Part shown: positions 4,422 to 22,240 of the stretch, piece after piece
Layout: every line of letters begins with the position of its first letter
How positions within the stretch are numbered: the stretch's first letter is position 1
Origin: an archaeon
GTDB taxonomy: Archaea > Iainarchaeota > Iainarchaeia > Iainarchaeales > Iainarchaeaceae
DNA length: 22,369 nucleotides
Direction: 5' to 3'
NCBI GenBank assembly: GCA_038046625.1
Contig: JBBSVV010000001.1
Coordinates: forward strand, 1 to 22,369
Made by a program: the position numbers and the translations under genes
The notes under the pieces: generated by a model
Told to the model about the DNA's origin: nothing
Databases searched by the model: none
The model's input: the letters and a program-made list of their open reading frames with translations, nothing else

Positions 4422-5723
4422 ATGAAAAAGGCGTTATTCTGCCTGTTTGTGCTTGTTGCGCTGCCGATGGCTTCCGCTGTTTCCGGCAATGAGGCGGTTA
4501 ACCTTGTTGCGAATGCGGGGCATTACCTTTACGACAGCGAAACCTACACTCCGCCGAATGTTTCGGTTGAATTCGGCGGAAGTTCCTACTGGGTTATTCC
4601 TGTGACTTCCGGAAACAATATCACCACTTACTTTGCCGTTGCTGTTGATTCCGGCGGGCTTTCAACCTTGCGTTCGGTCAACAGGGGCCTCTTTGGGGTT
4701 GCCGAGGAACTGCGCGAGCTGCAATTGCTCAAGGAATCAATTTCCGCCAATTCGGGCGTTGAGTGGGTTTTCACGCAGAAGTACGAAACAATTTTTTCGG
4801 AGATTGCTGTTCAGATGGACAACGAGGTTTTTCAGCTCAACACGGTTGAAACAACCCTCGATTCCGAGGGCCTGAACCTGAATCTCTCTCCATTGAGAAA
4901 CGAGCTGTCATCCCTCTCTGCCAATGCTTCCGGAATATCATCGAAACTGGCATCGGCTTCTTCGCTTGAAAACGAATTTTCAACGAAGCCGTCGCAGGAA
5001 AACTTCGGCAAAATGAAGGGCGCCTTTAATTCTGTGTTCGACTCGATTTCAGGGCTCAATTCGGATTCAGTTTCATACCGGAGCAACGTTGACAAGCTCA
5101 AGCAGCAGATTTCACTTGCGGAGATTGACGTGCAGACAAAATCACAGTTGTTCGGGATTCTGGAGCTTCCGCAGGGCATGCAGGCAATTGGCTCGTATAA
5201 TCTCGATGCCACGCAGATTAGGGAATCATTTGAATCGAGGCTCGAGGCGAGTTCACTGCGCATGGATTCAATACTCAATGAAATGGAAAACAGGCTGCTG
5301 AAAAACGAGGTTTATGGCCTGCTTTATTCCGAGAACGGCAGGCTCAAAAAAGGCTCTTCGCAGTTCGAGATTTTGAGCGAGGCGCAGGCAACGATACTTT
5401 CAAAGGAGAACCGCCCGATATGGGTTAACCAGTCAGGAGTGAGGGACCTGGAGAAGGATTACGCGAGGGCAACAAAGCTCTATGGTGAAAGGAATTTTGC
5501 GGACGCAAAGGATTCTGCGGAAAAGGCGATTGATGACGTCATTGCAATTGAAAAAAAAGGCAGGGTTTCGACCGAGAATCCGCCGTTGTTTTCGCAGGAC
5601 CTTTTGTTCCAGGTTGCGGCCGTGCTCGCGGCGCTCCTGGTTGCACTTTACATTTTCAACAATCGCGGAAAGATAAGGGGTTTTATTTCGCCCTCGGCAG
5701 AGGAAGTTGATGCCGATGAATAA
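4422..5723 (+). CDS. Secreted, C-terminally membrane-anchored coiled-coil protein
   Basis: Signal peptide MKKALFCLFVLVALPMASA, long helical Ser/Glu-rich body, several N-x-S/T sequons, TM segment LLFQVAAVLAALLVALYIF followed by basic residues. Confidence 0.8.
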   Translation: MKKALFCLFVLVALPMASAVSGNEAVNLVANAGHYLYDSETYTPPNVSVEFGGSSYWVIPVTSGNNITTYFAVAVDSGGLSTLRSVNRGLFGVAEELRELQLLKESISANSGVEWVFTQKYETIFSEIAVQMDNEVFQLNTVETTLDSEGLNLNLSPLRNELSSLSANASGISSKLASASSLENEFSTKPSQENFGKMKGAFNSVFDSISGLNSDSVSYRSNVDKLKQQISLAEIDVQTKSQLFGILELPQGMQAIGSYNLDATQIRESFESRLEASSLRMDSILNEMENRLLKNEVYGLLYSENGRLKKGSSQFEILSEAQATILSKENRPIWVNQSGVRDLEKDYARATKLYGERNFADAKDSAEKAIDDVIAIEKKGRVSTENPPLFSQDLLFQVAAVLAALLVALYIFNNRGKIRGFISPSAEEVDADE

Positions 5724-6579
5724 GCACGCGCTTGCATTGTTTTTTTCTGTTCTGGCCGCCTCTATCTGCTTTGCGCAGGTTGCCGTGGTGATTGAGCCTT
5801 CGGGTGGCACGGCAAATCCTGTTTACCCTTTTGAGGCCAAGGAATACAGGCTCACTGTTGTGAACCTTTCAGGGGCCGAGGCGCGCAATGTTGATGTGCT
5901 GCTTTTCGCCCCAAAAGAGGCTGCCCTCGTTGTGAACGGTTCCGATGAAATTGAAAGGCTCTTCACTTTTGTTTCGCTTGGCGCTGGGCAGCAGCAGGAA
6001 AGAATTTTTCAGGTAAGGCCACTCGCGTTTTCGGAAGCCCCGCTTGAAATAAAGGCGGTTTACGGTGACGAGAATGCGCCGAATTCGGCTTCCGCGTTTT
6101 TGCAGGTTTTGAAGCCTGTTGTTTCCTTCAATGCTTCCCTGAGCAAGGATTCTTTCTCGCCGAATGAGCAGGGAAAAATAATGTTCAGTGTTTCGAATGA
6201 TTCAGGGCAGGAAACGCTTTTCGGAGTGAAGGCTGAGGCGTTTGCCACGGGTTCTATAACAAACATAAGCCCGCCGCTTGTTGTGGGTTTGCTTGAGCCC
6301 GGAAAAGGCATTCCAGAGTCTTCGTTTTCTTTCACAACCGGAAAGCGCCCTGAAAGGGATTTTTTGGCTCTCCGCCTGAGTTATTCGGATTCTTTGGGGA
6401 GCCATGCCCTGGAAAAGTCCTTCAGGGTCGAGTCGCGCGACAGGGATTATTCCGCGGCGCTTTTTGTGGGCGCAATCATTGTGCTTGTGCTTGTTTCGTT
6501 TTACTTCAGCAGGAAGCGCATGGCCGATGAAAAAAAGGGCGCGGCAAAAGATGCTGCTCTGCATCCGGACTCAAAATAA
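5707..6579 (+). CDS. Secreted membrane-anchored protein with two predicted Ig-like (CARDB/S-layer-type) beta domains
   Basis: Signal peptide, two beta-rich repeats (LTVVN.SG...NV.V and FSVSNDSG...GV.A, each followed by L..G), C-terminal TM plus RKR. True start is probably ATG 5716. Confidence 0.75.
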   Translation: MMPMNKHALALFFSVLAASICFAQVAVVIEPSGGTANPVYPFEAKEYRLTVVNLSGAEARNVDVLLFAPKEAALVVNGSDEIERLFTFVSLGAGQQQERIFQVRPLAFSEAPLEIKAVYGDENAPNSASAFLQVLKPVVSFNASLSKDSFSPNEQGKIMFSVSNDSGQETLFGVKAEAFATGSITNISPPLVVGLLEPGKGIPESSFSFTTGKRPERDFLALRLSYSDSLGSHALEKSFRVESRDRDYSAALFVGAIIVLVLVSFYFSRKRMADEKKGAAKDAALHPDSK

Positions 6580-7662: not shown

Positions 7663-7784
7663 AAGTATACGGAAAAAATAAGTTGTTTTAAACCCGATAA
7701 TTTATGGCATTCCGGTCAATTGAGCAGTCAGTTAGAACCTGAAAATCATTGTAACCAATTCCATGCATAATTTTTATCGCTCAG

Positions 7785-8987
7785 TCAGCCTGAAAACAGT
7801 TCCTCTGCGTTCCTGTGCGCAAACCCTTCCTGCACCTCCGGGTCGAGCCTTGCGATGAATGCCCTTCCGAATTCTTCCATCAGCATACTCATTTCCTCGC
7901 CGTAATGCCATTTGACTCCCTTGTCCGTTCCCCACATGAATCTGTCCGGGTGCTTTTTAATCAGGCCCTTCCATTTGCTGACCTTTTCCTTCAGCCGAGA
8001 GTCAAAAGTCTGCCTGAACATTGAGGTAAATTTGCTTTCCGGCCCCATCATGAACAGGCCCTCCATTGCGTAAAGTGTGGCCGAATCAAGGGAAAAATAA
8101 ACGTTTGGGTACTTGTCCATCAGGCCGCCGACATCGTTCTCTATTTCAAATCCGTGCAGCAGGAATTTTACTCCCGGGTTTTTTTTCAATGCGTTTTCAA
8201 CGCTGCTCTTCTGGGTTTTGTCCGGATGCATCATCACTATCGCCCCATTACCTGCGGCTATCCTGTATATTTCGGAAAACCGCGAGTCATCAGGGGAGGA
8301 GCCCGCAAGGTACGGGGTGTAGAACGCTATTTCGCCGTAACCCTTGAAAAGGCCTGGCGCCGTTTCGTCTATTTTCCGCAATGTGTCGGCATCAAGGTTG
8401 GTTGGCATCAGGAAAAGCCTGACGTTTCTGCCGGATTTTTGTACAATTTCATGGGCTTTTTCCAGTGCGCCCTCAATGTCCCGGCTGTCGGCAATGAAAA
8501 AGGCTATCGCGCCTGAAACGCCTTCCTCATCAAAAGTGCAGAGTATCTGTTCGAGCCCGACATCCTTGTCCAAAATTGGGTCTGTCATGCCGGGGTACAT
8601 CATGGAAACCACGGGCATGTGGAAGTGTGCGTCAAACAAGGGCCCGCGGTAATAAGGTTCCGCCCCAAATTCTGGTGCAAATTCCCTGCTGCATTTCTCC
8701 CTCGCGCTTGAATCCGCATCGTTCCCGGAAATCGCATTATCTGATGTTCTGTCGGGAGGCTTGGCATCCGAATCCTGCTGTTCGCCGATAGGCCCTGTAG
8801 TGTTATTTTCAATCTCAGCTCCGTTTCCTGCGCTGGGCGCTTCAATCGGCCCGGCAGTTTCTGGTGTTTCCGCCGCATAGTTATTGGCGCTTTTCTCCCC
8901 CGAATCAGGAGCCTGTTGCGGCGCGCCCGTTTGCGTGCATCCCGCAAGTAAAAATGCAACGAGAATTAAGGCAAAGGCAGTTTTCAT
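7785..8987 (-). CDS. Lipoprotein, amidohydrolase superfamily (TIM-barrel metallo-dependent hydrolase)
   Basis: Lipobox LLAGC, low-complexity linker, DAHFH (HxH), GYGE, MMH, LLHG and WGTD metal-ligand motifs. Confidence 0.85.
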   Translation of the reverse strand: MKTAFALILVAFLLAGCTQTGAPQQAPDSGEKSANNYAAETPETAGPIEAPSAGNGAEIENNTTGPIGEQQDSDAKPPDRTSDNAISGNDADSSAREKCSREFAPEFGAEPYYRGPLFDAHFHMPVVSMMYPGMTDPILDKDVGLEQILCTFDEEGVSGAIAFFIADSRDIEGALEKAHEIVQKSGRNVRLFLMPTNLDADTLRKIDETAPGLFKGYGEIAFYTPYLAGSSPDDSRFSEIYRIAAGNGAIVMMHPDKTQKSSVENALKKNPGVKFLLHGFEIENDVGGLMDKYPNVYFSLDSATLYAMEGLFMMGPESKFTSMFRQTFDSRLKEKVSKWKGLIKKHPDRFMWGTDKGVKWHYGEEMSMLMEEFGRAFIARLDPEVQEGFAHRNAEELFSG

Positions 8988-9033
8988 ATGCCTTTATTAA
9001 GATTTTTTTATATAAAAGCTTACACTTCCCAGT

Positions 9034-9170
9034 TATAGCAGACCGTGAAAGTTTTTCGGCATATGACGCGGTTCCTTCTACCCGTAGGGTACGAGGCCTA
9101 ATGCCCTTGGGCATAAGGTGCTAGATAGCAGACCATGAAATATTGCCGAAATATTTGTTGGCCTGCCATA
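9034..9170 (+). repeat. Array 1 of modular palindromic (MITE/REP-like) units: TA-[88 nt]-GA-[43 nt]-TA
   Basis: Units 9036-9123 (TAGCAGACC...TGCTA) and 9126-9168 (TAGCAGACCA...TGGCCTGCCA). 9035-9138 is the reverse complement of 13767-13870 with one mismatch. Confidence 0.92.
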
Positions 9171-9224
9171 AAACACGTTTTTCAGGCGCAAAGGTTTTAT
9201 TTCAGCAACGGGCAAATACTATGC

Positions 9225-9923
9225 ATGCCCACGCAGGAAACCCTGAACTTCGGAAAACCGGAAAAAAAGAGGCTCAACGAAATACTGGCTTTGTTCGAGG
9301 ATGCGCCAGTGACAAACTACTTCGAGGAGAAGCGCGCAAAAAAAGGCGGGTGCACAATAACCCTTTACAATTCCGGAAAACTTTCAATACAAGGAGCAGA
9401 TGCAGCAAAAGTAAAGGAAGAAATAATCTCAATGATGGGCCTCAAGGAAGAGCTCGTGATAGGCATTGATGAAACAGGGCGCGGGGAAAGAATCGGGCCA
9501 ATGGTGATAACAGGGGTTCTGGCGGACACGAATTCTGTGCGCGAGGTAAGGGACAGCAAGAAAACAACCGACATTGCAAAAAAAGAAAAAATAGTTTCCG
9601 AAAAAATGTTCGGCTCGGTTTCTGTTGTGCTGAACGCAAAGCTCATTGATTTGTGCCGCAACAAGGGAAAAAACCTGAATGAACTCGAAGCCGGAACAAT
9701 TGAAAAGATCGCGGAAATACTTTCATTCTTCGAGGAAGCCGAAGTAATAGTGGATGGCGCACCGCTTAAGGTTCAGGGCAAAAAAATAAAGTTCCTTCCC
9801 AAAGGCGATGACCTGGAGCCCGTGATAGGAGCGGCAAGCATAGTGGCGAAACATTTGCGCAACAATTCTAGCGACAAGGGCGAAAGAAAGACTTGGAAAA
9901 CAAACGAGAAAAATGAAAAATAA
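9225..9923 (+). CDS. Type 2 ribonuclease H with N-terminal TBP-like (RNase HIII/DUF3378-type) domain
   Basis: ITLYNSGKLSIQG (HIII N-domain pattern), GIDETGRG..IGP, VRDSKK, IVDG, KGDD, AASIVAK. ATG 9135 lies inside the repeat, so the start is moved to ATG 9225 (TTTTATTT box about 22 nt upstream). Confidence 0.88.
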   Translation: MPTQETLNFGKPEKKRLNEILALFEDAPVTNYFEEKRAKKGGCTITLYNSGKLSIQGADAAKVKEEIISMMGLKEELVIGIDETGRGERIGPMVITGVLADTNSVREVRDSKKTTDIAKKEKIVSEKMFGSVSVVLNAKLIDLCRNKGKNLNELEAGTIEKIAEILSFFEEAEVIVDGAPLKVQGKKIKFLPKGDDLEPVIGAASIVAKHLRNNSSDKGERKTWKTNEKNEK

Positions 9924-9930
9924 AATCAGC

Positions 9931-10380
9931 CTATTTCGAGGAATTGAAAATCATTGCGTGAAGTTTCTTCGGGGAAAGGTTCTTTTCCCTCTTCGAGTTC
10001 CTGAAGGAGCGCGCCCTGACAGTCACATTTTTGTCCTGAAGCTCCTTGAGTATGTCCTTCATCGCAATTATCTCGGCTTCGGCAGTTGAACGGAAATGGT
10101 CAAGCTTTTCAACCTTCTTCCTCAGCTTTAAGTTGTCCGCGCCTTTTGAGTCAGCAACCAGCTTTTCGAGCTCCTGGATGCGTTTATGGGCAAGCTCGAT
10201 TTTTTTCTCCAAAGGGGCGATGCTCGGCCTTTCCTGCTGCGTCGCGTAAACCAGCGGTTCGTTGCCTGTTTGCGCGGGCTGCTGCGATTCCTCCTCTTTT
10301 GGCCTGAAAAGGAAAAGCAGGCCATTGCCTATCAAAAGAGCCAGTATCAGGACACCGAGAAAAAGAGTTAAGGGCGCCAT
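9931..10380 (-). CDS. Hypothetical N-terminally membrane-anchored coiled-coil protein
   Basis: Hydrophobic N-terminal helix followed by heptad-like charged helices. ATG 10380 preferred to TTG 10398 (TTTAAAATA box and GGAGG upstream). Confidence 0.75.
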   Translation of the reverse strand: MAPLTLFLGVLILALLIGNGLLFLFRPKEEESQQPAQTGNEPLVYATQQERPSIAPLEKKIELAHKRIQELEKLVADSKGADNLKLRKKVEKLDHFRSTAEAEIIAMKDILKELQDKNVTVRARSFRNSKREKNLSPKKLHAMIFNSSK

Positions 10381-10466
10381 AAGATAAAGTGCCTCCAAGA
10401 GTTATTTTAAAGGTTGTTGCGGCAAATGGCACAACAAATAAAAACAGCTCTCGCATTTGTTAGTTT

Positions 10467-11108
10467 ATGGAAAAGCCGTCACGCCCTTTTATTACGCCAA
10501 ATTCTAAAAAGCATACAACAGTAATTTCGGCAATGTTCCACCACGGCAGTCATTTCAACCCCCGCAACGAATCTGCGATACACCAGCTGCGTGCTTTTAC
10601 AAATATGCTCGCAGAAAGGCACGCAGAGTTAAGGGATATAAAAATAACAGGATGCTGGGTAAAGGAGGACAAGCTCAAGGGCTCTAATGGAGGGCAGGCT
10701 ATATTCACAGGCACAACACCACAAAGCCAGTCCATTGCAATTGAAATTACAAAAGACCACGAAAGTTTTGAATACAGGATACGGCTTGGAAAAGGAGAAA
10801 GGAAAAATATTGAAAGAAAAGTTGAAACTATTTCCCGAATAGAGGATAAGGAATGGCTTAGGCTTGTAGAGGAGGGCGAGGACAAATTCCTGCAAGTCGA
10901 AATACCCGGAAAAACCTTCCTGCTGCGCAGCGGCAGAATAGAAGTCCGCCACCGCGGAAACCGGAGGCCTGTGACAAGCGAAGAAAAAAGAACTATTTAC
11001 GCAACGACAATGAACCTTTTCAAACAAAGAAAGGAACGCGGTGCAGAAAAGTCAACGGAGTACATGAGGCTAATAACCAAAGCGTTCGGCAACGCGCCAA
11101 GTAAATAA
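10467..11108 (+). CDS. Hypothetical basic protein (213 aa)
   Basis: Longest ORF filling the gap, protein-like composition, no recognised motif. Confidence 0.65.
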   Translation: MEKPSRPFITPNSKKHTTVISAMFHHGSHFNPRNESAIHQLRAFTNMLAERHAELRDIKITGCWVKEDKLKGSNGGQAIFTGTTPQSQSIAIEITKDHESFEYRIRLGKGERKNIERKVETISRIEDKEWLRLVEEGEDKFLQVEIPGKTFLLRSGRIEVRHRGNRRPVTSEEKRTIYATTMNLFKQRKERGAEKSTEYMRLITKAFGNAPSK

Positions 11109-11122
11109 TGGCACTGCCAAAA

Positions 11123-11866
11123 TTATTCTTTGAAATACAATTTAGTGAAATTCTTCCCTGTCTTGGATTCGGCAACGCTATTTTCCACTCCATGCAGCTG
11201 CGCAACCTTTGCGCAAACCTCCGGAATCCAGGATGGCTCGGACTGCTTTCCTTTAAAGAAAACGGGCGCATCGGTTTCAAGCAAAAGGCTTTCAAGGGGG
11301 ATTCCCTTCACGACTTCGGCAGAAGCAGGATCGCTAAAAATAATCGGGCCGCAGGAAATGAAATAACCAAGCTCAACAGCCTTTTGCGCGTTTTCGTGAA
11401 AATTCGTGAACCAATGCAAGTGGACCTTTTTCGCGCCAAGCTCCTCAAGAATATCGAGGCATTCGGGTTCCGCGAAGCGCGCGTGCACGACAACCGGCTT
11501 TTTGGCTCCAATGGCGATTGCAACAAATCCCCTGAAAACGCGCTCCTGCAGCTTTTTTTGCGCCGCATTTGCGTGCTTGAAGTCCATTCCTATTTCCCCC
11601 ACCGCGGCAGCTTCATGCACGCGTGACTCAACTAGCTTAACAGCCGCCATAATTTGCGCCTCGCCGAGCGAAAGCAGGTCCACCGGATGCAGGCCTATCG
11701 CACAGCCCACTTCCTTAAACTTCTTTGAAAGTTCAAGATTTGGCCCAATGTTTTCCGGTGAAGTGGAATTTGACAGAATGGCCGAAACGCCCGATTTTAC
11801 CGCCCTTTGCACAACGGATTCCGGTTCCCTGAACCAATCCAAATGGCAGTGGGAGTCCGCTAACAA
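11123..11866 (-). CDS. tatD: TatD family DNase
   Basis: DSHCHLD, AIGLHP, VGEIGMD, VVHAR, HLHWF, LETDAP. Start placed at TTG 11866 (MLADSHCH), preceded by a GGTGAT SD. Confidence 0.95.
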   Translation of the reverse strand: MLADSHCHLDWFREPESVVQRAVKSGVSAILSNSTSPENIGPNLELSKKFKEVGCAIGLHPVDLLSLGEAQIMAAVKLVESRVHEAAAVGEIGMDFKHANAAQKKLQERVFRGFVAIAIGAKKPVVVHARFAEPECLDILEELGAKKVHLHWFTNFHENAQKAVELGYFISCGPIIFSDPASAEVVKGIPLESLLLETDAPVFFKGKQSEPSWIPEVCAKVAQLHGVENSVAESKTGKNFTKLYFKE

Positions 11867-11936
11867 AAAATCACCATTTAAAAAATTTTGCCTTGGTAGG
11901 ATTATATTAGCCATAGAAACAATTTTAAGTGGTCAC

Positions 11937-13076
11937 ATGGAAGATAAGCAAAAAACAGCGGAAAAGCCCGCAAAGGGCGAAAAAAAGCCCGGATCCAAGG
12001 GCATTAATATCCCGCCATACCTGGCAGTAATGCTCCTCATACTTGGAATACTCGGGGGCTACGCCATAAGCCTGATTATTAACCCTGCCCCGGAAACAAC
12101 CCCAATAAGCGATGCCAATTCCATAACCGACGTCGCTTACAGGACAATTCCGGTTACAATGGTTTACACCAATGACTGCAGGTCATGCAGGCAAACCAAT
12201 ATGGTTGAGGAACTTTTCAAAGTCAGGCAGATTCCATACACAATCAAAAAAGTCGAGGCAAGCAGCGAAGAAGGAAAACAGATTCTCGCGAGGTTCCCGG
12301 ACATCACTATGCTCCCCACAGCGCTTGTTGATTCCGCAAAAATGCAGTTTTACCCCTCCACAAAAAAGAATTTCGATGCCGTCTTCAGGGAAAGCAACGG
12401 CGCATATGTTGTGCCGGAGCTCAACCTTGACCCGAACAATTATTACCCGGTTTATTATCTTGACATGGCCCCGGGTTTCTGCAGCGGCGACAAGCCAAGC
12501 GCAGTGCTGTTCGATGATTACTACAACGAAGCCTACACGAAACAAAGGAGAACATTTTACGACTTCGCCCGGGATTTCAACGAGTCCGCAGACATCCGGT
12601 TCAGCTTTGCACAGTCTTCCTCTAAGGACACGAACTCCGTTCTTGGCAACCTTTTCCTCATGTGCGCGAGTTCGCAGGGCAAGTTTGCGGACCTTGAAAG
12701 AACAATCACCGGAATCTACTGCAACAATCCCTTCAAGGGCGACCCCACAATATTAACTGGCCCGGAAATAGACGGGTGCTGGACCATCAGTGACCACTAC
12801 GGAAAGCCGCTGACGCAGATAGAACTGGACGTCGCGCTCGGACGCGCCACAATAGACCAGAACGAGTTCAGGGCATGCTACGAAAACAAGGAAGCAATGT
12901 ACAACAACGCCAAAAAAACCGCGCAGGAACTAGGCATCACGAGGAGCGGGACATTCCTCATTGACTGCAGGGAAACCGCGAGCCTGAGCGAACTCCGGGA
13001 TTCGTTCTGCGCAAGGCACCCGGAACTGCAGGCCTGCAACAAAACCAGTGTTCCTGATGCAAGCGCACCCGCCTGA
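11937..13076 (+). CDS. Membrane-anchored tandem thioredoxin-fold protein (CxxC domain plus DsbA-like domain)
   Basis: Start ATG 11937 (MEDKQK), since the upstream part of ORF 11406 is antisense to tatD. TM helix, CRSC with ITMLPT cis-Pro loop, then DsbA-like CA..QGKF and F..C...A.ELGI...TF.I motifs. Confidence 0.8.
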   Translation: MEDKQKTAEKPAKGEKKPGSKGINIPPYLAVMLLILGILGGYAISLIINPAPETTPISDANSITDVAYRTIPVTMVYTNDCRSCRQTNMVEELFKVRQIPYTIKKVEASSEEGKQILARFPDITMLPTALVDSAKMQFYPSTKKNFDAVFRESNGAYVVPELNLDPNNYYPVYYLDMAPGFCSGDKPSAVLFDDYYNEAYTKQRRTFYDFARDFNESADIRFSFAQSSSKDTNSVLGNLFLMCASSQGKFADLERTITGIYCNNPFKGDPTILTGPEIDGCWTISDHYGKPLTQIELDVALGRATIDQNEFRACYENKEAMYNNAKKTAQELGITRSGTFLIDCRETASLSELRDSFCARHPELQACNKTSVPDASAPA

Positions 13077-13653
13077 ATTTTTTTTAAACGGCGCGCATTT
13101 TGGGGCACCGAAAGAAACCTATTTCCCCAGCGAGGATTCTTATTTTCTCGCGGAAAACGTTTCAATCCCGAAAAACGCTTCAGTGATTGATGTGGGATGC
13201 GGCTCAGGAATACAATCACTAAACGCTTTCATGCAGGGCGCAGCGAAAGTAATTGCGCTTGACGTGAACGAAATTGCCCTGGAGGCAACCAGAAAAAACT
13301 GCGAAAAGGCCGGATTCAAAAGCATTGAGGCAAGGAAATCCGACCTGCTTGAAAACTGCGTGGAAAAGGCCGATATCATAATCTTTAACCCGCCGTACCT
13401 TGAAAGCGACGATTATAAGCACGCTGATCTGAACGGCGGAAAAAAAGGCCGCGAAATCCTCGACAGGTTTCTGGAGCAAATGCCACTGTACCTCAAAAAA
13501 AACGGGAAATGCTTTTTCCTGCAGACAGATTTGAACGGCCACGCGGAAACTGAAAAGCTTTTGAAAGCAAAAGGCATGAAATTCAAGATAATCGCGCGCA
13601 AAAAAGGGTTTTTTGAAGAGCTTTGCATTTACGAAGCAGCTCGGCAAAAATAA
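13057..13653 (+). CDS. HemK2/Mtq2-family SAM-dependent methyltransferase (release factor glutamine methyltransferase-like)
   Basis: YFPSEDSYFLA, DVGCGSG, FNPPY, GGKKGREI..RFL. Overlaps the upstream gene. Exact start uncertain. Confidence 0.92.
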   Translation: MQAHPPEFFLNGAHFGAPKETYFPSEDSYFLAENVSIPKNASVIDVGCGSGIQSLNAFMQGAAKVIALDVNEIALEATRKNCEKAGFKSIEARKSDLLENCVEKADIIIFNPPYLESDDYKHADLNGGKKGREILDRFLEQMPLYLKKNGKCFFLQTDLNGHAETEKLLKAKGMKFKIIARKKGFFEELCIYEAARQK

Positions 13654-13733
13654 AAATTAGCATTTCTGGTTCGAATTGACGGCACTTGGATAGGGCGCTG
13701 TTCAATTGTCCATAAAAGCAGAAAATGGCATTC

Positions 13734-13916
13734 TATAGCAAACCAATAAAGTAATTCGGTGAAGTCTCATGGTCTGCTATCTAGCACCTTATGCCCAAGG
13801 GCATTAGGCCTCGTACCCTACGGGTAGAAGGAACCGCGTCATATGCCGAAAAACTTTCACGGTTTGCTATCTAGCAGGTCACCATAAATGCCTAAAAACT
13901 TTCGTGGTCTGCTATA
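13734..13916 (-). repeat. Array 2 of modular palindromic units; read on the minus strand, TA-[43 nt]-GA-[88 nt]-GA-[44 nt]-TA
   Basis: Units 13872-13914, 13782-13869 and 13736-13779, each bounded by TAGCA...TGCTA. Outer ends CTATAGCAAACCA and TGGTCTGCTATAG form a 12/13 inverted repeat. Confidence 0.92.
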
Positions 13917-15554: not shown

Positions 15555-16802
15555 TTATTTCCAGTCCCTTGCCTGTGCTGACTTTTTGTGTCCTTCTAGG
15601 CCTTCAACTTTAGCTAGTTGCGAAGCTATTGGAATCAATTTTTTTGCCCCGTTTTTGGTTATCCTCTGATACGTGAGTATTTTCACAAAGTCTTTAACCG
15701 AAAGGCCGCCTGTATAGCGTGCTGCTCCGTTAGTCGGCAATGTGTGGTTTGTTCCGCTGCAGTAATCCCCGAATACTTCGGCTGAATATTCTCCAATGAA
15801 CAATGAACCGTAGTTTGTAAGCTTGGAAATCAAGCGTTTCGGATTCTTTACCTGCAATTCTAAGTGCTCTGGGGCTTTCTTGTTGGAGACTTGAATGGCC
15901 TCATTTAAGCTGGGCGCTATTATTATTGCTCCGTTTAGAAGTGCAAGTTCTGCTGTTTCTTTTGTGCCGAGGCTATCCAATTGAACTGATATCTCATTAT
16001 TCACTTTTTCTGCAAGTTCCCTTGAAGTTGTAACCAAATATGGCTTGGCATTTGTATCGTGCTCTGCCTGTGCGAGAAGGTCAGCTGCAATCATCTTGGC
16101 ATTCCCAGATCCGTCAGCAATTATGAGGATTTCGCTCGGGCCCGCAAGAAAATCTATTCCTACTGCTCCGTATACTTCCTTTTTTGCTGCAGTAACAAAC
16201 CTGTTGCCAGGTCCCACTATTTTGTCAACCTTTGGGATTGTTTTTGTTCCGTAAGCCATTGCTGCAATTGCCTGCGCTCCGCCCACGCTGAAAATCCTGC
16301 CCGCGCCAGCAATGTCTGCAGCAACTATTGTTGCGGGCTTTATTTTCGGGGAGCAAACGATAATTTCCTTCACACGAGCCACTTTTGCAGGAATTACACA
16401 CATGAGTGCCGTCGATGGGAGGGGATATCTTCCTCCAGGGGCGTAGCAGCCGATTTTTTCTATTGGAACTATTTTCTGGCCGAGTATAACCCCATTCCTG
16501 TTTACTGTAAAGTTTTTCATTCCCTTGAACTGTTCCTTGGTAAAGTACTTGATATTTTTTGCGGCTTTCCTGAGCGCGGCAATTGTTTTTTCGTCTACTT
16601 GCTTGTAGGCTGCACGGATTTCTTTTTTGCTTATTTCAAATGATTTAGGAACCACTGCATCAAATTTCTTTGTGTATTTCCTGACGGCTGAATCCCCGTT
16701 TTTTCTGACGTCGCGAATTATTTCTCTGACTGTATCTATTTCCTTTATTTGTTCGTATGCCGTGTTGGCCAGGCGCAGCTCTGATGCTTTGATGATTTTC
16801 AT
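15555..16802 (-). CDS. hisD: Histidinol dehydrogenase
   Basis: [55 protein letters not shown]. Confidence 0.98.
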
Positions 16803-18022
16803 TTTCTTCTCCCCTCTAACTCGTTCTTGACCTCGTTTATTGTTACTCCGTTTTTTGCCATCAGCACCATCACGAAATATGTGAGGTCCGCCACTTCCCG
16901 GATTAGGTTTCTCCGGTCCTTGTAATAGGCAACTTCCAGTGCTTCCTCGTTGATTTTGTATTTCAACATTTTTTCATCTGATGAAAGTTTTGCCGTATAG
17001 GAGCCGGCCTTCGGGTTCTGTATTCTTTCCATGATGACATCGTATAGCTCGCTGAACCTGAATTCCTTTTCCCCGAAGCATGAGTATTCTCCTGTATGGC
17101 ATGCTTTGCCATTTTGCTTGACTGTAAATAGGAGTGTGTCCCTGTCGCAGTCGTATCTTGCCCTGAGGAGTTCCTGGAAGTTTCCGGATGTTTCGCCTTT
17201 CTGCCAGAGTTTTTTCCTTGACCTGCTGTAATAATTTGCTTTTCCGGATTCGAATGCCTTTGAGAGCGATTCCCTGCTGGAAAATGCCATCATAAGCACT
17301 TGCCCTCTCTCATCCTGCACTACCGTTGGCACAAGGCCGTTGTTTTTTTCGAAATCAAGAAGCGAAACGAATGCATCTTGCAGCTTTATTTTACCTGTGT
17401 AGAGTGCCATGCCTATTTGTGAATTGAATCCTTCTTCTTCGAGCCTCTTTATTTCCTCTATTGTCGTTATTCCGCCTGCAAAAGTGACTTTGTTTTTCGT
17501 GGCTTCCTTGAGTTGCTTTACAAGTTCCCTGTCCACTCCTGCAAGCATTCCTTCCTTGTCTACGTTCGTAAAGAGAAATTCGCCGCAGTAAGGCTCAAGC
17601 TCTTTCATTTGCTCAAACGGATTTTTGCCGGTGGATTTAATCCAGCCTTCAGTCATAATGGAATTGTTTTTCGTGTCAACCGCAACAATCACTTTCTCTT
17701 TTGGCAAGTTTTTGAGGAACCCGGGAGTTGCCTTTGTCCCGATAATTATTTTTTTTGCTCCTGCTTTGAGAATTTCCTCGGCCTTCTCAACGCTTCTGAT
17801 GCCGCCTCCTACTCTGCAATCGGCCAGTTTGCATATATTTTTCACAAGCTCATAGTTGTCTCCTTTGCCTAACGCCGCATCAAGGTCTATTACGGCTATT
17901 TCTCCATATTTCCTGAATTCTCTTGCAAGGCTGATCACATCCTCTACTTCGAGTACTTTTTCTTTTCCTTGCCTAAGCTGCACCGCTTTTCCGTTCATCA
18001 GGTCAATGCTTGGGATTATCAT
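16799..18022 (-). CDS. hisAIE: Trifunctional HisA-HisI-HisE fusion (ProFAR isomerase / PR-AMP cyclohydrolase / PR-ATP pyrophosphatase)
   Basis: aa ~1-220 HisA (IPSIDL..GKAVQL.QG, IDLDAA, GGGIRS, AGGI). aa ~221-320 HisI (YSRSR..LW.KGETSG, DCDRD, ACHTG..SCF). aa ~322-407 HisE (GSYT.KL, KI.EEA.E, EVADL.Y). Confidence 0.95.
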
Positions 18023-19358: not shown

Positions 19359-19946
19359 TCATATCACCCCTTTCGTGCTTGGTATTTCACAAATCATTCT
19401 CTTGTCAACGGAGCACCCCATTTTCATTGCCTTGCCGAACGCCTTGAAAATGGCCTCGACCTTGTGGTGGTCGCTTCTGCCATAAGGCATTTTCACGGCT
19501 ATGTTTGCTCCAAGCCCGACACAGAACCCATAGAAGAAATCCTCCAGCGCGTCTAGGTCTAGCTTTCCGCAGAAGCGCCTCCTGAATTTCGCATCAAATC
19601 TGCAAAATGGCCTTCCCCCGATGTCTACCGCAACCACTGCAAGTGCCTCGTCCATTGGGTAGACGAAAAAGCCGGCCCTGTTTATTCCTTTCTTCTCTCC
19701 AAGGGCCTCCTTGAATGCCTGCCCGAGCACAAGGCCTGTGTCTTCAATGGTGTGGTGCTGGTCCACCTTCAAATCACCTTTAACACTGGCCTCAATGTCA
19801 AATGCCCCTGTTTTTCCAAAAGTTTCGAGCATGTGGCTCAAGAAACCTATAGGTATTTTGATCCTGCTCTTTCCAGTTCCGTCAATGTTCAGTTTCACTG
19901 CTATTTCGGTTTCTTTTGTCCTGCGTTTTACGTTTGCTTTTCTCAT
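19359..19946 (-). CDS. hisB: Imidazoleglycerol-phosphate dehydratase (monofunctional)
   Basis: R.TKET.I, GFL.HML, GDL.VD.HHT.ED, PMDEAL, DHH.VEA.FKAFG, IPSTKG. Confidence 0.98.
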   Translation of the reverse strand: MRKANVKRRTKETEIAVKLNIDGTGKSRIKIPIGFLSHMLETFGKTGAFDIEASVKGDLKVDQHHTIEDTGLVLGQAFKEALGEKKGINRAGFFVYPMDEALAVVAVDIGGRPFCRFDAKFRRRFCGKLDLDALEDFFYGFCVGLGANIAVKMPYGRSDHHKVEAIFKAFGKAMKMGCSVDKRMICEIPSTKGVI

Positions 19947-22240
19947 GTGACCAGCTCCGCTGCCTCATTTACGTCCGAAGTAACCATGGTTGCGCCCTTT
20001 TTCATGAGCAGTTGCTTTAGTTTCGTGGCATTGGCCGACGGCGGAAGCACTCCTATAGGTTTGACATTTGCCCTTATTGCGGCTTCAATGTCGTCAACTG
20101 CATCCCCGAAGTAATATGCCTTCTTTGCCCCTAATTTTTCGAGCGCCAATTCAATTCCGTAAGGATCGGGCTTTCCTTTTCCAATGGGAATGTCATCATT
20201 TGTTACGATGGCATCGAAATATTCTCTCAGCCCGAATTTCTCAAGGGTGTCAATGGCTTCTTTTCTTGGCCTTCCGGTGACTATTCCGAGCTTGAAGCTG
20301 CTCCATAGCTTTGACAGTGTCTCTTTTTTTACCAACAGTTTCTCATTGGCTGCCAAATTTTCTTTTTCATAAATTTCCTGGAATTTGTCAACTATTTTAT
20401 TTTTTGTGGCGTTTGATTTTCTTTCCCGAATTATTGCTTCCGTCAGGTCCCAATCATTGTTGCACCCTCCGAGCTCCTTGAATTTCCGGATTTCTGCCGG
20501 CGCAACGCTTTTTCCCGTGAAATATTCGGCAGTTTTTTGTATTGCTTTCGTGTAAGAGCCGCTGACGTCAATCAAAACTCCGTCCATGTCGAAAATTAGC
20601 GCCTCTTCACGGAGCACGGATTTTAAGTTTGCAAGCAGCGTTTTACATTGCTCCGTTGTTCCGATGGTTATTCTCAGGCATCCTTCTAGCAGCGGGTATT
20701 TTCCAACATCCCTTATGAGCACTCCGTTTTCCCGTAGCCTTGTGCAGGCCATTTCGGCTTTTTCTCCAAACTTTGCGAGGACAAAATTTGCTTGCGAGGG
20801 GAAAGTCTCAATGCCTAACTCATTGAGTTCCTTTACTGCAATTTCTCTGTTGGTCTTGACTTCCTTAACGTATTCTTCTACAAATTTAGTGTCCTCAATT
20901 GCGGCTTCTGCTGCTTTCATTGCAACTGCATTCACGCTGTAGGGCGATGCCGCCTTTTTCATGAGAGAGATTGTTTTGGAATTTGCAATGATGTATCCCA
21001 TTCTCAGGCCCGCAAGCCCGAATGCCTTTGAGAAGGTTTGAAGAATTATTAGATTAGGGTATTGCCTTATTTTTTCCTTTGCGCTTTTGCCGTAGTATTG
21101 GAAATATGCCTCGTCAAGCAGCACAACAGAGCCCTTTGCTGCTTCAAGTATCTCCTGCAGGTCGTCTTCATTGATTGCGGTCCCTGTAGGGTTATTCGGG
21201 TTCACGAGCACGAGCATTTTTGGCTTGCTGCGCAGCATTTCAATTATTTCACGAGTAGGAAAACTCAAGTCTTTGTTGTACATTACTTTCGTGATTTTTG
21301 CCCCAGCTATCCGCGCATAGATTTCAAAAAGCCGGAATGTTGGTTCCGGTATCAGCACTTCTTCTCCTTTCTCCATGAAAACGTCCATTGCAAGCTTGAT
21401 TGCCTCATCAGAACCGTTCGTCAACAGAATTTCATTTTCATTTACTTTCAAGTACTTTGCAAGCTTTGAAGTGAATTTGCCGTATTCTGGGTACGCTGAT
21501 ATTTCATCAGTCGTTATTTCCTTCAGAGCCTGTATTACTTTTTCGGAGCAGCCTTTTGTGTTTTCGTTGAAATCAAGCCTTAGCATTCCTCTCCTGCCCT
21601 CAGTTGGGGGCGAATATTTTTCAATGCCTTCAATGCTTTGCCTTGGTTTGGGTTTATTTTTTGCGGTAATTATTACAAAGTCGCTTTCCTTTATTTTTTC
21701 GTAAACTCTCAGCCCGTTTCTCTCCATGGTTGCGCCGCTGTACACTATGTCTATTGCGAGGTCGGCTATTCCTTCTGAGTAACCTGTTTCAACGCATCCA
21801 GAAACGTATATCTTCCTGAAACAAAAGCCGGATTCTTCGAGGGTTTTGAGGTATTTCTCCGCTATGTTCCTATACTTGGCTGAAATGCAAATTGAGAGGT
21901 ATTTAGCAAGCTCGTTCAACTGCTTATCTTTGGGCCCGAGCAGGCAAAGAGCTGGCTTGCCATAAAGAGTATTAGGGTCGCTCCATTCAATCCTTTCCAA
22001 TATTTCAAGATTATTTGAGTTTTCAGTTACGCAATATTCATTGAAGAGATCTTCCCCTGTAAGGCCGATTGTATTTTTCCCCTTTCTGGAATATTCTTCC
22101 ACCATGAAAGGTATGTCCTCGCCACGCAACTCTATTACTTTGGCTTTGTCGAGGTTCTTGAGCAGTGAAAATGCTTTTTCCCTGTATCTCTCAAGACCTG
22201 AGTTTTTCGGTGCCAGGATGAAGGCAACCGCCTGCGTCAA
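19943..22240 (-). CDS. hisGC: Trifunctional fusion: short-form ATP phosphoribosyltransferase (HisG) / histidinol-phosphate aminotransferase (HisC) / HAD phosphatase (probable histidinol phosphatase)
   Basis: aa ~1-193 HisG (R.EDIP..V, G.TG.DL, KY.NIA..Y, GCVE....G.AD..IDIV.SG.T...NGL). aa ~200-545 HisC (LDFNEN, NGSDEAI, NPNNPTG, DEAY, TFSKAFGLAGLRMGY). aa ~548-765 HAD (FDMDGVLID, VTGR, KPDP, GD..DD). TTG start. Confidence 0.93.
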   Translation of the reverse strand: MTQAVAFILAPKNSGLERYREKAFSLLKNLDKAKVIELRGEDIPFMVEEYSRKGKNTIGLTGEDLFNEYCVTENSNNLEILERIEWSDPNTLYGKPALCLLGPKDKQLNELAKYLSICISAKYRNIAEKYLKTLEESGFCFRKIYVSGCVETGYSEGIADLAIDIVYSGATMERNGLRVYEKIKESDFVIITAKNKPKPRQSIEGIEKYSPPTEGRRGMLRLDFNENTKGCSEKVIQALKEITTDEISAYPEYGKFTSKLAKYLKVNENEILLTNGSDEAIKLAMDVFMEKGEEVLIPEPTFRLFEIYARIAGAKITKVMYNKDLSFPTREIIEMLRSKPKMLVLVNPNNPTGTAINEDDLQEILEAAKGSVVLLDEAYFQYYGKSAKEKIRQYPNLIILQTFSKAFGLAGLRMGYIIANSKTISLMKKAASPYSVNAVAMKAAEAAIEDTKFVEEYVKEVKTNREIAVKELNELGIETFPSQANFVLAKFGEKAEMACTRLRENGVLIRDVGKYPLLEGCLRITIGTTEQCKTLLANLKSVLREEALIFDMDGVLIDVSGSYTKAIQKTAEYFTGKSVAPAEIRKFKELGGCNNDWDLTEAIIRERKSNATKNKIVDKFQEIYEKENLAANEKLLVKKETLSKLWSSFKLGIVTGRPRKEAIDTLEKFGLREYFDAIVTNDDIPIGKGKPDPYGIELALEKLGAKKAYYFGDAVDDIEAAIRANVKPIGVLPPSANATKLKQLLMKKGATMVTSDVNEAAELVT

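Follow-up and report, generated by a model that had tools for sequence, protein, structure and literature searches.

The window, by which we mean the whole stretch analysed here (22,369 nt of contig JBBSVV010000001.1, assembly GCA_038046625.1, from an archaeon of the Iainarchaeaceae), carries genes for an archaeal-type prolyl-tRNA synthetase and a DRG GTPase as well as a his operon. A tRNA-Pro(GGG) gene at 616-689 precedes the prolyl-tRNA synthetase gene (1189-2622) by about 500 nt, and the region that follows the tRNA gene (690-790) contains short AAAGAAAG-rich direct repeats (721-774). The his operon (16799-18022 and 19943-22240) holds fused genes: one product of 407 aa combines His_biosynth, PRA-CH and PRA-PH domains, and another of 765 aa joins HisG to an aminotransferase and a HAD phosphatase. 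Between these landmarks, an amidohydrolase gene (7785-8987, minus strand) with its flanks (7694-9030) adjoins an array of short palindromic units, which we call site A. A second array, site B, lies at the far end of a 4.6-kb segment (9170-13734) that runs from the RNase HII gene to a methyltransferase gene and is thus bracketed by inverted arrays. Within this segment, a well-supported TatD gene (11123-11914, minus strand) overlaps the 5' third of a plus-strand open reading frame (11406-13076) with no Pfam match, and the plus-strand gene probably begins downstream of the start of this frame.

Site A is read on the plus strand and consists of unit A1 (9036-9123) followed by unit A2 (9125-9169). 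A1 is a type-I hairpin with a stem made of helices P1 and P2, a 19-nt loop, and a 45-nt module in the 3' arm of the stem; A2 is a 45-nt type-II hairpin that completes a dimer with A1. Site B is read on the minus strand in the order B1, B2, B3. B1 (13872-13915) is a type-I hairpin of about 45 nt without the module, B2 (13782-13869) is a second 88-nt copy, and B3 (13735-13780) is a type-II hairpin of 46 nt. In addition, a degenerate solitary unit lies on the minus strand at approximately 786-837, with a recognisable 5' arm and loop start and a decayed 3' arm. The units of both arrays start with ATAGCARACC and finish with its complement. This terminal motif of 10 nt is found 8 times in the window, where 0.74 occurrences would be expected. 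If positions 9074-9118 are taken out of A1, an ordinary 43-nt type-I unit is left, and the 88-nt unit is therefore a 43-nt hairpin whose 3' arm has received 45 nt between GGTT and TGCTA.

The earlier note had described this unit as conserved in two copies and had suggested that it was selected as a structure or else recently copied or gene-converted. The second copy exists and is identical at 87 of 88 positions (98.9%), with the qualification that B2 is on the minus strand and inverted with respect to A1. The single difference, G9041 to A, turns a G.T pair into an A-T pair as had been noted. A1 and B2 are embedded in a 122-nt inverted repeat (9035-9156/13749-13870), while the neighbouring units A2 and B3 have only their first 14 nt in common and are about 76% identical overall. 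Among the dimers of Ca. Iainarchaeum andersonii, the mean identity is 84% and the highest value 97.8%, so that the A1/B2 pair is an outlier within the family, which argues for a recent copy or conversion. This reading is also backed by the location of A1 and B2: they form inverted repeats at either end of a segment whose orientation is opposite in the sister genome.

The MFE structure calculated by RNAfold for the plus strand of the 88-nt unit is a four-way junction of -30.1 kcal/mol. The sequence confirms the claimed pairings of P1 (9036-9040/9119-9123) and P2 (9041-9047/9067-9073), the latter with two wobbles, G9041.T9073 and T9046.G9068, and the four helices abut with zero unpaired junction bases. 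To call the junction perfect was an overstatement, since P3 (9074-9083/9087-9096) contains a C9078.C9092 mismatch as well as one T.G wobble, and P4 (9097-9106/9109-9118) contains an A9100.A9115 mismatch and a 2-nt loop that is unable to close, for which reason RNAfold opens the top pair of P4. The energy of the junction is unremarkable for its composition (z = -1.61; 11 of 200 dinucleotide shuffles were equally stable). Folding of both strands had been proposed as a check, and here the reverse strand gave a mirror junction that is nearly as stable (-28.0 kcal/mol, z = -1.96); with DNA parameters, the two strands reached -13.5 and -12.6 kcal/mol. The junction is therefore not specific to one strand. 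Of the three G-U wobbles noted earlier, two are in P2 and one is in P3. P3 and P4, which had been taken for duplicates, are related in a sharper form, P4 being approximately the reverse complement of P3.

To place these units in a wider context, we scanned 596 Gb of genome contigs with a DNA pattern and obtained 50 loci, against about 20 chance matches expected by our own estimate. Most of them (38 of 50) come from nine DPANN archaeal assemblies, namely Ca. Iainarchaeum andersonii SCGC AAA011-E11, a Ca. Iainarchaeum MAG (UBA10205), two MAGs labelled Micrarchaeota, and five whose only label is 'archaeon' or 'uncultured archaeon'. The remaining 12 loci, 11 of them bacterial and one from a Methanosarcinales MAG, are singletons without conserved loops or dimer form. 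Loci fetched for comparison carry L-numbers in the following; L011 is the Ca. I. andersonii contig AQRS01000036. Searching the archaeal loci (about 0.65 Mb) with nhmmer returned 50 non-redundant rows, 40 of which are full dimers, some of them with inserts. All but 3 rows are intergenic, and these 3 belong to the two assemblies labelled Micrarchaeota, for which the gene caller is unreliable; this caller was home-made, and the gene starts behind all context statistics are approximate.

The canonical element is a head-to-tail dimer of about 90 nt, composed of a type-I and a type-II hairpin of about 44 nt each. The units have stems of 9-12 bp, of which the outer 9 nt read TAGCARACC/GGTYTGCTA, and conserved loops of about 20 nt that include CGAAAGTTTTTCGG in type I and CCGAATTACTTT in type II. 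The two stems of one dimer are nearly always unlike, one of them G-type and the other A-type, in either order, and the outer 9-11 nt of the dimer form inverted repeats. Full-length elements are flanked by T at position -1 in 38 of 39 parsed sites and by A at position +1 in all 39. A site comprises 1-4 abutting units, without spacers apart from a 23-nt gap between the two dimers of L011. Loops are as conserved as stems across genomes that range from 37 to 57% G+C. Dimers have a mean identity of 84% within I. andersonii and of 77% within the CAYJWI assembly; when dimers of one are compared with those of the other, it is 79.5%. As the between-genome value is close to the within-genome values, the family would be old and constrained and not the product of a recent burst. 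This pattern suggests long-term constraint, unlike that of a purely selfish, decaying MITE, and leaves room for a host function at the level of RNA or protein binding.

The earlier note had put forward homologue collection and a covariation analysis as a way to examine the fold, and by this measure the stems covary strongly. Among 26 distinct dimers, 87.5% of the cells are paired, and 13 of 24 pairs are altered on both sides (45 cells), a score that was attained in 0 of 500 shuffles. In slid controls, at most 4 pairs and 6 cells changed in this way. The hairpins are maintained. The proposal of a selected RNA or ssDNA structure is thus supported for the individual hairpins only, the stems of which covary over the 26 dimers.

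The 45-nt module of A1 (9074-9118, plus strand) consists of two similar hairpins, P3 and P4. Because the second is nearly the reverse complement of the first, the module is a palindrome of palindromes that reads similarly on both strands. Related 45-nt modules are found in L013, L004, L017, L010, and in two copies in L001; L011 has P4 alone, and in L039 there is a partial 3'-end match. In four cases (the window, L013, L004 and L017) the module is embedded in a hairpin unit, always at the same point of a stem arm, TAGCA^AACC. The arm differs, however: L013 has the module in the 3' arm of a type-I unit, whereas L004 and L017 have it in the 5' arm of a type-II unit. The embedded copies of L013, L004 and L017 show compensatory changes. 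A four-way junction is predicted for A1/B2 of the window and for L013, and for L017 with a shortened closing stem, while in L004 the closing stem is absent from the predicted RNA fold. At the loci with nested modules, the energies of the two strands are alike, also with DNA parameters. The left flanks of the module copies have a single T in common and no conserved target tetranucleotide. A palindrome inside the arm of another palindrome must fold as abutting helices, with every junction base paired, on either strand, and the junction is therefore a by-product of nesting. As an entity of its own, the four-way junction is not conserved; nested palindromes give rise to it. More generally, abutting helices without junction bases are the expected signature of such nesting and are by themselves no evidence of a junction-forming RNA.

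In L001 the module is enclosed by other closing stems, within a repeat of about 120 nt that lies among ribosomal-protein genes, at the L22|S3 (5857-5976) and L14|L24 (8578-8697) junctions. A partial copy (4901-4936) is located at the L2|S19 junction. About 40 nt are duplicated at the L22|S3 junction (5801-5840/5967-6006), and because of this duplication both genes are intact.

A closer view of turnover comes from the comparison with Ca. I. andersonii, to which the window is 87-97% identical along L011. Relative to L011, positions 9093-13502 of the window are inverted with respect to both flanks, and the breakpoints coincide with the arrays. Next to one breakpoint, the 3' end of the methyltransferase gene (13402-13632) is only 72% identical, against about 92% elsewhere. 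Window positions 7694-9030, the amidohydrolase gene with its flanks, lack a counterpart in L011 and in all the other loci fetched. The units of L011 are gathered in a single array, and its methyltransferase|DRG junction carries none. As L032 displays the same methyltransferase|DRG adjacency as L011, the arrangement in the window is the derived one. Neither one flip between existing sites nor one replicative inversion starting from an L011-like state yields the unit order B1-B2-B3 ... A2-A1, and we rejected both.

The units themselves also differ between the two genomes. B1 is the orthologue of L011 10001-10044; in the window B2 stands between B1 and B3, whereas in L011 B1' and B3' abut and the 88-nt copy is missing between them. 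This gain of B2 has the appearance of a recombination event within the repeated termini and not of cut-and-paste. The A1 orthologue in L011 keeps P1, P2, P4 and the base of P3, but in place of the top of P3, or as an expansion of it, there are about 107 nt of other sequence. This insertion (10160-10283) comprises several further hairpins and has a closing stem of its own, although the flanking genes are 92-97% identical. Two further pairs of loci contain filled and empty sites: between its methyltransferase and DRG genes L032 carries a dimer that is missing from L011, and L049 has a unit together with other hairpins where L046 has a 12-nt intergenic region. The genomes within these pairs are too divergent for an insertion junction to be read. 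As far as the compared loci indicate, element positions are not orthologous between species. In L049 the hairpins (7772-7870) comprise a solitary type-II unit and small hairpins, one of which has a CCT...AGG base as in P3 and P4.

We inspected the genes around the elements for enzymes that might move them. Apart from one Xer-like tyrosine recombinase gene, the 82 element-flanking genes are of an ordinary housekeeping kind, and no transposase gene abuts an element among these 82 and 128 further I. andersonii genes (about 18% of the genome). Two transposase genes are present elsewhere among the I. andersonii loci: an IS200/IS605 TnpA gene at the start of contig L005 (3-416) and an IS5 transposase gene in L020. 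A hairpin downstream of the TnpA gene (L005, about 425-450) is repeated with a compensatory stem change in four other loci (L015 5736-5826, L016 about 640-750, L024 about 13774-13875, and L020 3624-3654). The copies in L016 and L024 are two-hairpin, PATE-like elements of about 110 nt, common to two species. With a resident TnpA and two-hairpin derivatives, hairpin-based transposition of single strands exists in this lineage. The end hairpin of the TnpA element is nonetheless unlike the units and P3/P4 in sequence, and the ends of the IS5 element are unrelated to the hairpin units, so that we rejected the first as the source and the second as the parent of the family. No longer element bounded by the terminal motif was detected in the fetched loci, where only chance 9-mers occur, and phage and plasmid collections gave no match to positions 9030-9172.

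Among the closest known systems are the REP, BIME and REPIN elements of bacteria. Like the hairpin units, they are short extragenic imperfect palindromes in tens of copies that occur as singletons, dimers and clusters, their stems are maintained, and similar divergence within and between genomes implies long persistence. High copy number, small size, extragenic position and imperfect palindromy, by which REP/REPIN-RAYT repeats are recognised, are all found in the units. The foot of the REP hairpin carries a conserved GT[AG]G tetranucleotide (PMC6006769, PMC3733652); the units described here read ATAG at the 5' end and CTAT or CTAG at the 3' end instead. Bacterial REP dimers can lie inside longer palindromes (PMC3733652), and 'double-foot' REPs have the foot motif and its complement at both ends (PMC6006769). 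In the excerpt of Table 1 of PMC6006769, which lacks most of the REP-associated rows, IS200/IS605 subclass 1.1 alone lists Archaea. The elements differ from REPs in that the dimers are head-to-tail, consist of two unlike hairpins with sequence-conserved loops of about 20 nt, and reside in an archaeal host. RAYT (TnpA_REP) is a single-copy Y1 HUH transposase gene flanked by REPs; no RAYT-like gene flanked by the repeats was found in the same gene sample as above (82 plus 128 genes, about 18% of the I. andersonii genome).

MITEs that target TA, such as the Correia/NEMIS-type and IS630-derived elements, are non-coding sequences of about 90-150 nt with terminal inverted repeats and T...A flanks that lie between genes in either orientation. 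The dimers have terminal inverted repeats too, and their T/A flanks fit either a TA target duplication or a longer terminal inverted repeat. Unlike MITEs, they have no parent IS with the same ends among the fetched loci, their internal sequence is highly conserved across species, and each half is a hairpin with covarying arms. PATEs derived from IS200/IS605 are comparable insofar as TnpA and two-hairpin derivatives of about 110 nt occur in the same genomes, but the resident IS200/IS605 hairpins do not match the units or P3/P4. Cyanobacterial SDR elements and Rickettsia palindromic elements are tiny palindromes of compact genomes that insert into other repeats or between and within genes and form nested composites; there is no sequence relationship. 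The elements are not a CRISPR array, as TRF detected no tandem array in the window and the 1-4 units of a site abut without spacers save for the one gap in L011. In sum, the elements behave like REP/BIME/REPIN or MITE-type repeats yet fail some of the tests that define each kind. A MITE census reports a high MITE density in some DPANN genomes, and the portion available to us does not mention the hairpin dimers (PMC11602168). Likewise, the parts of the literature on Iainarchaeum/Diapherotrites repeats, DPANN MITEs and archaeal REPIN/RAYT systems that were accessible hold no published account of them. The hairpin dimers, a family found across an archaeal order in which stems covary and loops are conserved, thus appear to be undescribed.

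Taken together, these data make it rather likely that the 88-nt unit represents two nested small palindromic repeats, from REP/BIME-, REPIN- or MITE-like families specific to Iainarchaeum-like DPANN archaea, and not a gene for a four-way-junction RNA. The outer layer is the T...A-flanked element of about 90 nt with a type-I and a type-II hairpin head-to-tail, and the inner layer is the 45-nt palindrome of palindromes, set into a stem arm at TAGCA^AACC. The feature that is recognised and maintained may be the formation of hairpins in single-stranded DNA or in read-through RNA. Copies could spread via insertion at TA-like sites as well as by recombination or gene conversion between copies. A1 and B2 would then stem from a recent inverted duplication or conversion, and their 122-nt inverted repeats could have served as the recombination substrate on which the 4.6-kb segment was flipped.

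A bolder version of this idea, which we regard as possible but unlikely, sees the dimers as the equivalent of REPINs in archaea: hairpin replicators that persist for long and are inherited vertically, or hairpin sites recruited by the host. A single-copy enzyme, either a domesticated Y1 HUH transposase or a tyrosine recombinase, would serve them, with the covarying stems and conserved loops as its recognition code. If this is true, nested modules together with inverted copies would be what rearranges the otherwise streamlined DPANN genomes, for example through the 4.6-kb inversion.

It is also conceivable that the dimers are structured non-coding RNA genes or modules, for instance processing, stability or regulatory elements that are transcribed along with neighbouring genes, or small RNAs with two conserved loops, of which the 88-nt form is an expanded variant with P3 and P4 as expansion helices. 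The strong covariation of the stems and the conservation of the loops over nine assemblies of 37-57% G+C agree with this explanation. The unlike stems of a dimer disfavour mispairing between its units, and in L011 P3 retains its base and has an expanded distal part, which recalls RNA expansion segments. Many copies are situated a few bases past stop codons or between co-directional genes and would hence be co-transcribed. An RNA that acts from one strand should, however, leave further traces. When 70 units (910 stem cells) were oriented by their loops, we counted 761 Watson-Crick pairs, 22 G.T, 30 A.C and 97 other combinations, i.e., no excess of G.U over A.C. Element orientation is not biased with respect to neighbouring genes, the downstream gene being on the same strand in 27 cases and on the opposite strand in 21, and the upstream gene in 23 and 24 cases, respectively. 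Neither a conserved promoter nor a conserved terminator was found in the element flanks, which are not conserved. With the gathering threshold, Rfam recognised only the tRNA-Pro in the whole window, and at E<=10 it gave 0 matches to positions 8980-9230; ARAGORN likewise reported only the tRNA-Pro in the window and no tRNA-like gene at the 88-nt site. We therefore rejected curated Rfam RNAs, including tRNA-like RNAs and four-way-junction ribozymes, none of which had a covariance-model match. K-turn, C/D box and hammerhead motifs were not found by eye in the element sequences. Considering also that both strands fold about equally and that element positions are not shared between species, a strand-specific structured RNA is not supported despite the covariation, and the broader RNA explanation seems improbable to us. 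A role solely as terminator or promoter was rejected as well, since there is no orientation bias and divergent promoter regions are not avoided: the four possible arrangements of flanking genes occur 14, 12, 10 and 9 times.

Another proposal is that a protein binds the units as double-stranded DNA sites. The protein could be a site-specific (tyrosine) recombinase, an organiser of the nucleoid or condensin type, or a global regulator, and the 4.6-kb inversion would be a programmed, site-specific flip between inverted sites. Palindromic arms at a fixed spacing around sequence-conserved centres are in line with it, as is the coincidence of the inversion breakpoints with the arrays. The Xer-like recombinase gene mentioned above (L005 8016-9104) abuts a dimer (9093-9182), and a second, inverted dimer (12395-12484) follows 3.2 kb away, which echoes the inverted arrays of the window. 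Several neighbours of elements function in replication and repair (PolD, PCNA, RadA, RNase HII, and Orc1/Cdc6 near the dimer of L024). Compensatory changes in both arms, on the other hand, are unexpected for half-sites that are read by one protein. Since an array is missing at the second breakpoint in L011, a simple flip of the window's arrangement does not produce that of L011. The recombinase gene occurs once in the fetched loci, beside only 1 of about 50 sites, with no further homologue next to other elements, and intergenic regions of the convergent, divergent and co-directional kinds contain elements equally often. This makes sites of this kind quite improbable as an explanation. The last possibility, that a local sequence duplication folds in this way by coincidence and neither belongs to a family nor has a maintained structure, could appeal to the MFE z of only -1.6 but is refuted beyond reasonable doubt by the 38 archaeal loci, the excess of the terminal motif in the window, and the covariation that no shuffle matched.

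If the 88-nt unit is indeed a nest of small palindromic repeats, it extends to Iainarchaeota a type of element that is well studied in bacteria and for which the literature accessible to us holds nothing on this lineage. The reduced DPANN genome considered here bears at least four families of hairpin repeats, namely the dimers, the 45-nt module, the element of about 120 nt in the ribosomal-protein operon, and the two-hairpin elements derived from IS200. With their conservation at 37-57% G+C and their compensatory changes, the dimers offer a clean system in which to ask what maintains DNA hairpins in archaea. They are also a practical lineage marker and a likely source of rearrangements and assembly breaks.

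Some of the genes that adjoin elements have features of their own. Three contain inteins (L026 10809-13967, L030 8098-11142, and L039 1012-3603); they comprise an SRP54 gene with a LAGLIDADG intein, an intein-containing gene for the RNA polymerase B subunit, and one more open reading frame with an intein. In L024 (5077-13770), a dimer is located directly 3' of the PolD large-subunit gene and 2.5 kb from the Orc1/Cdc6 gene, and it is therefore possibly close to a replication origin.
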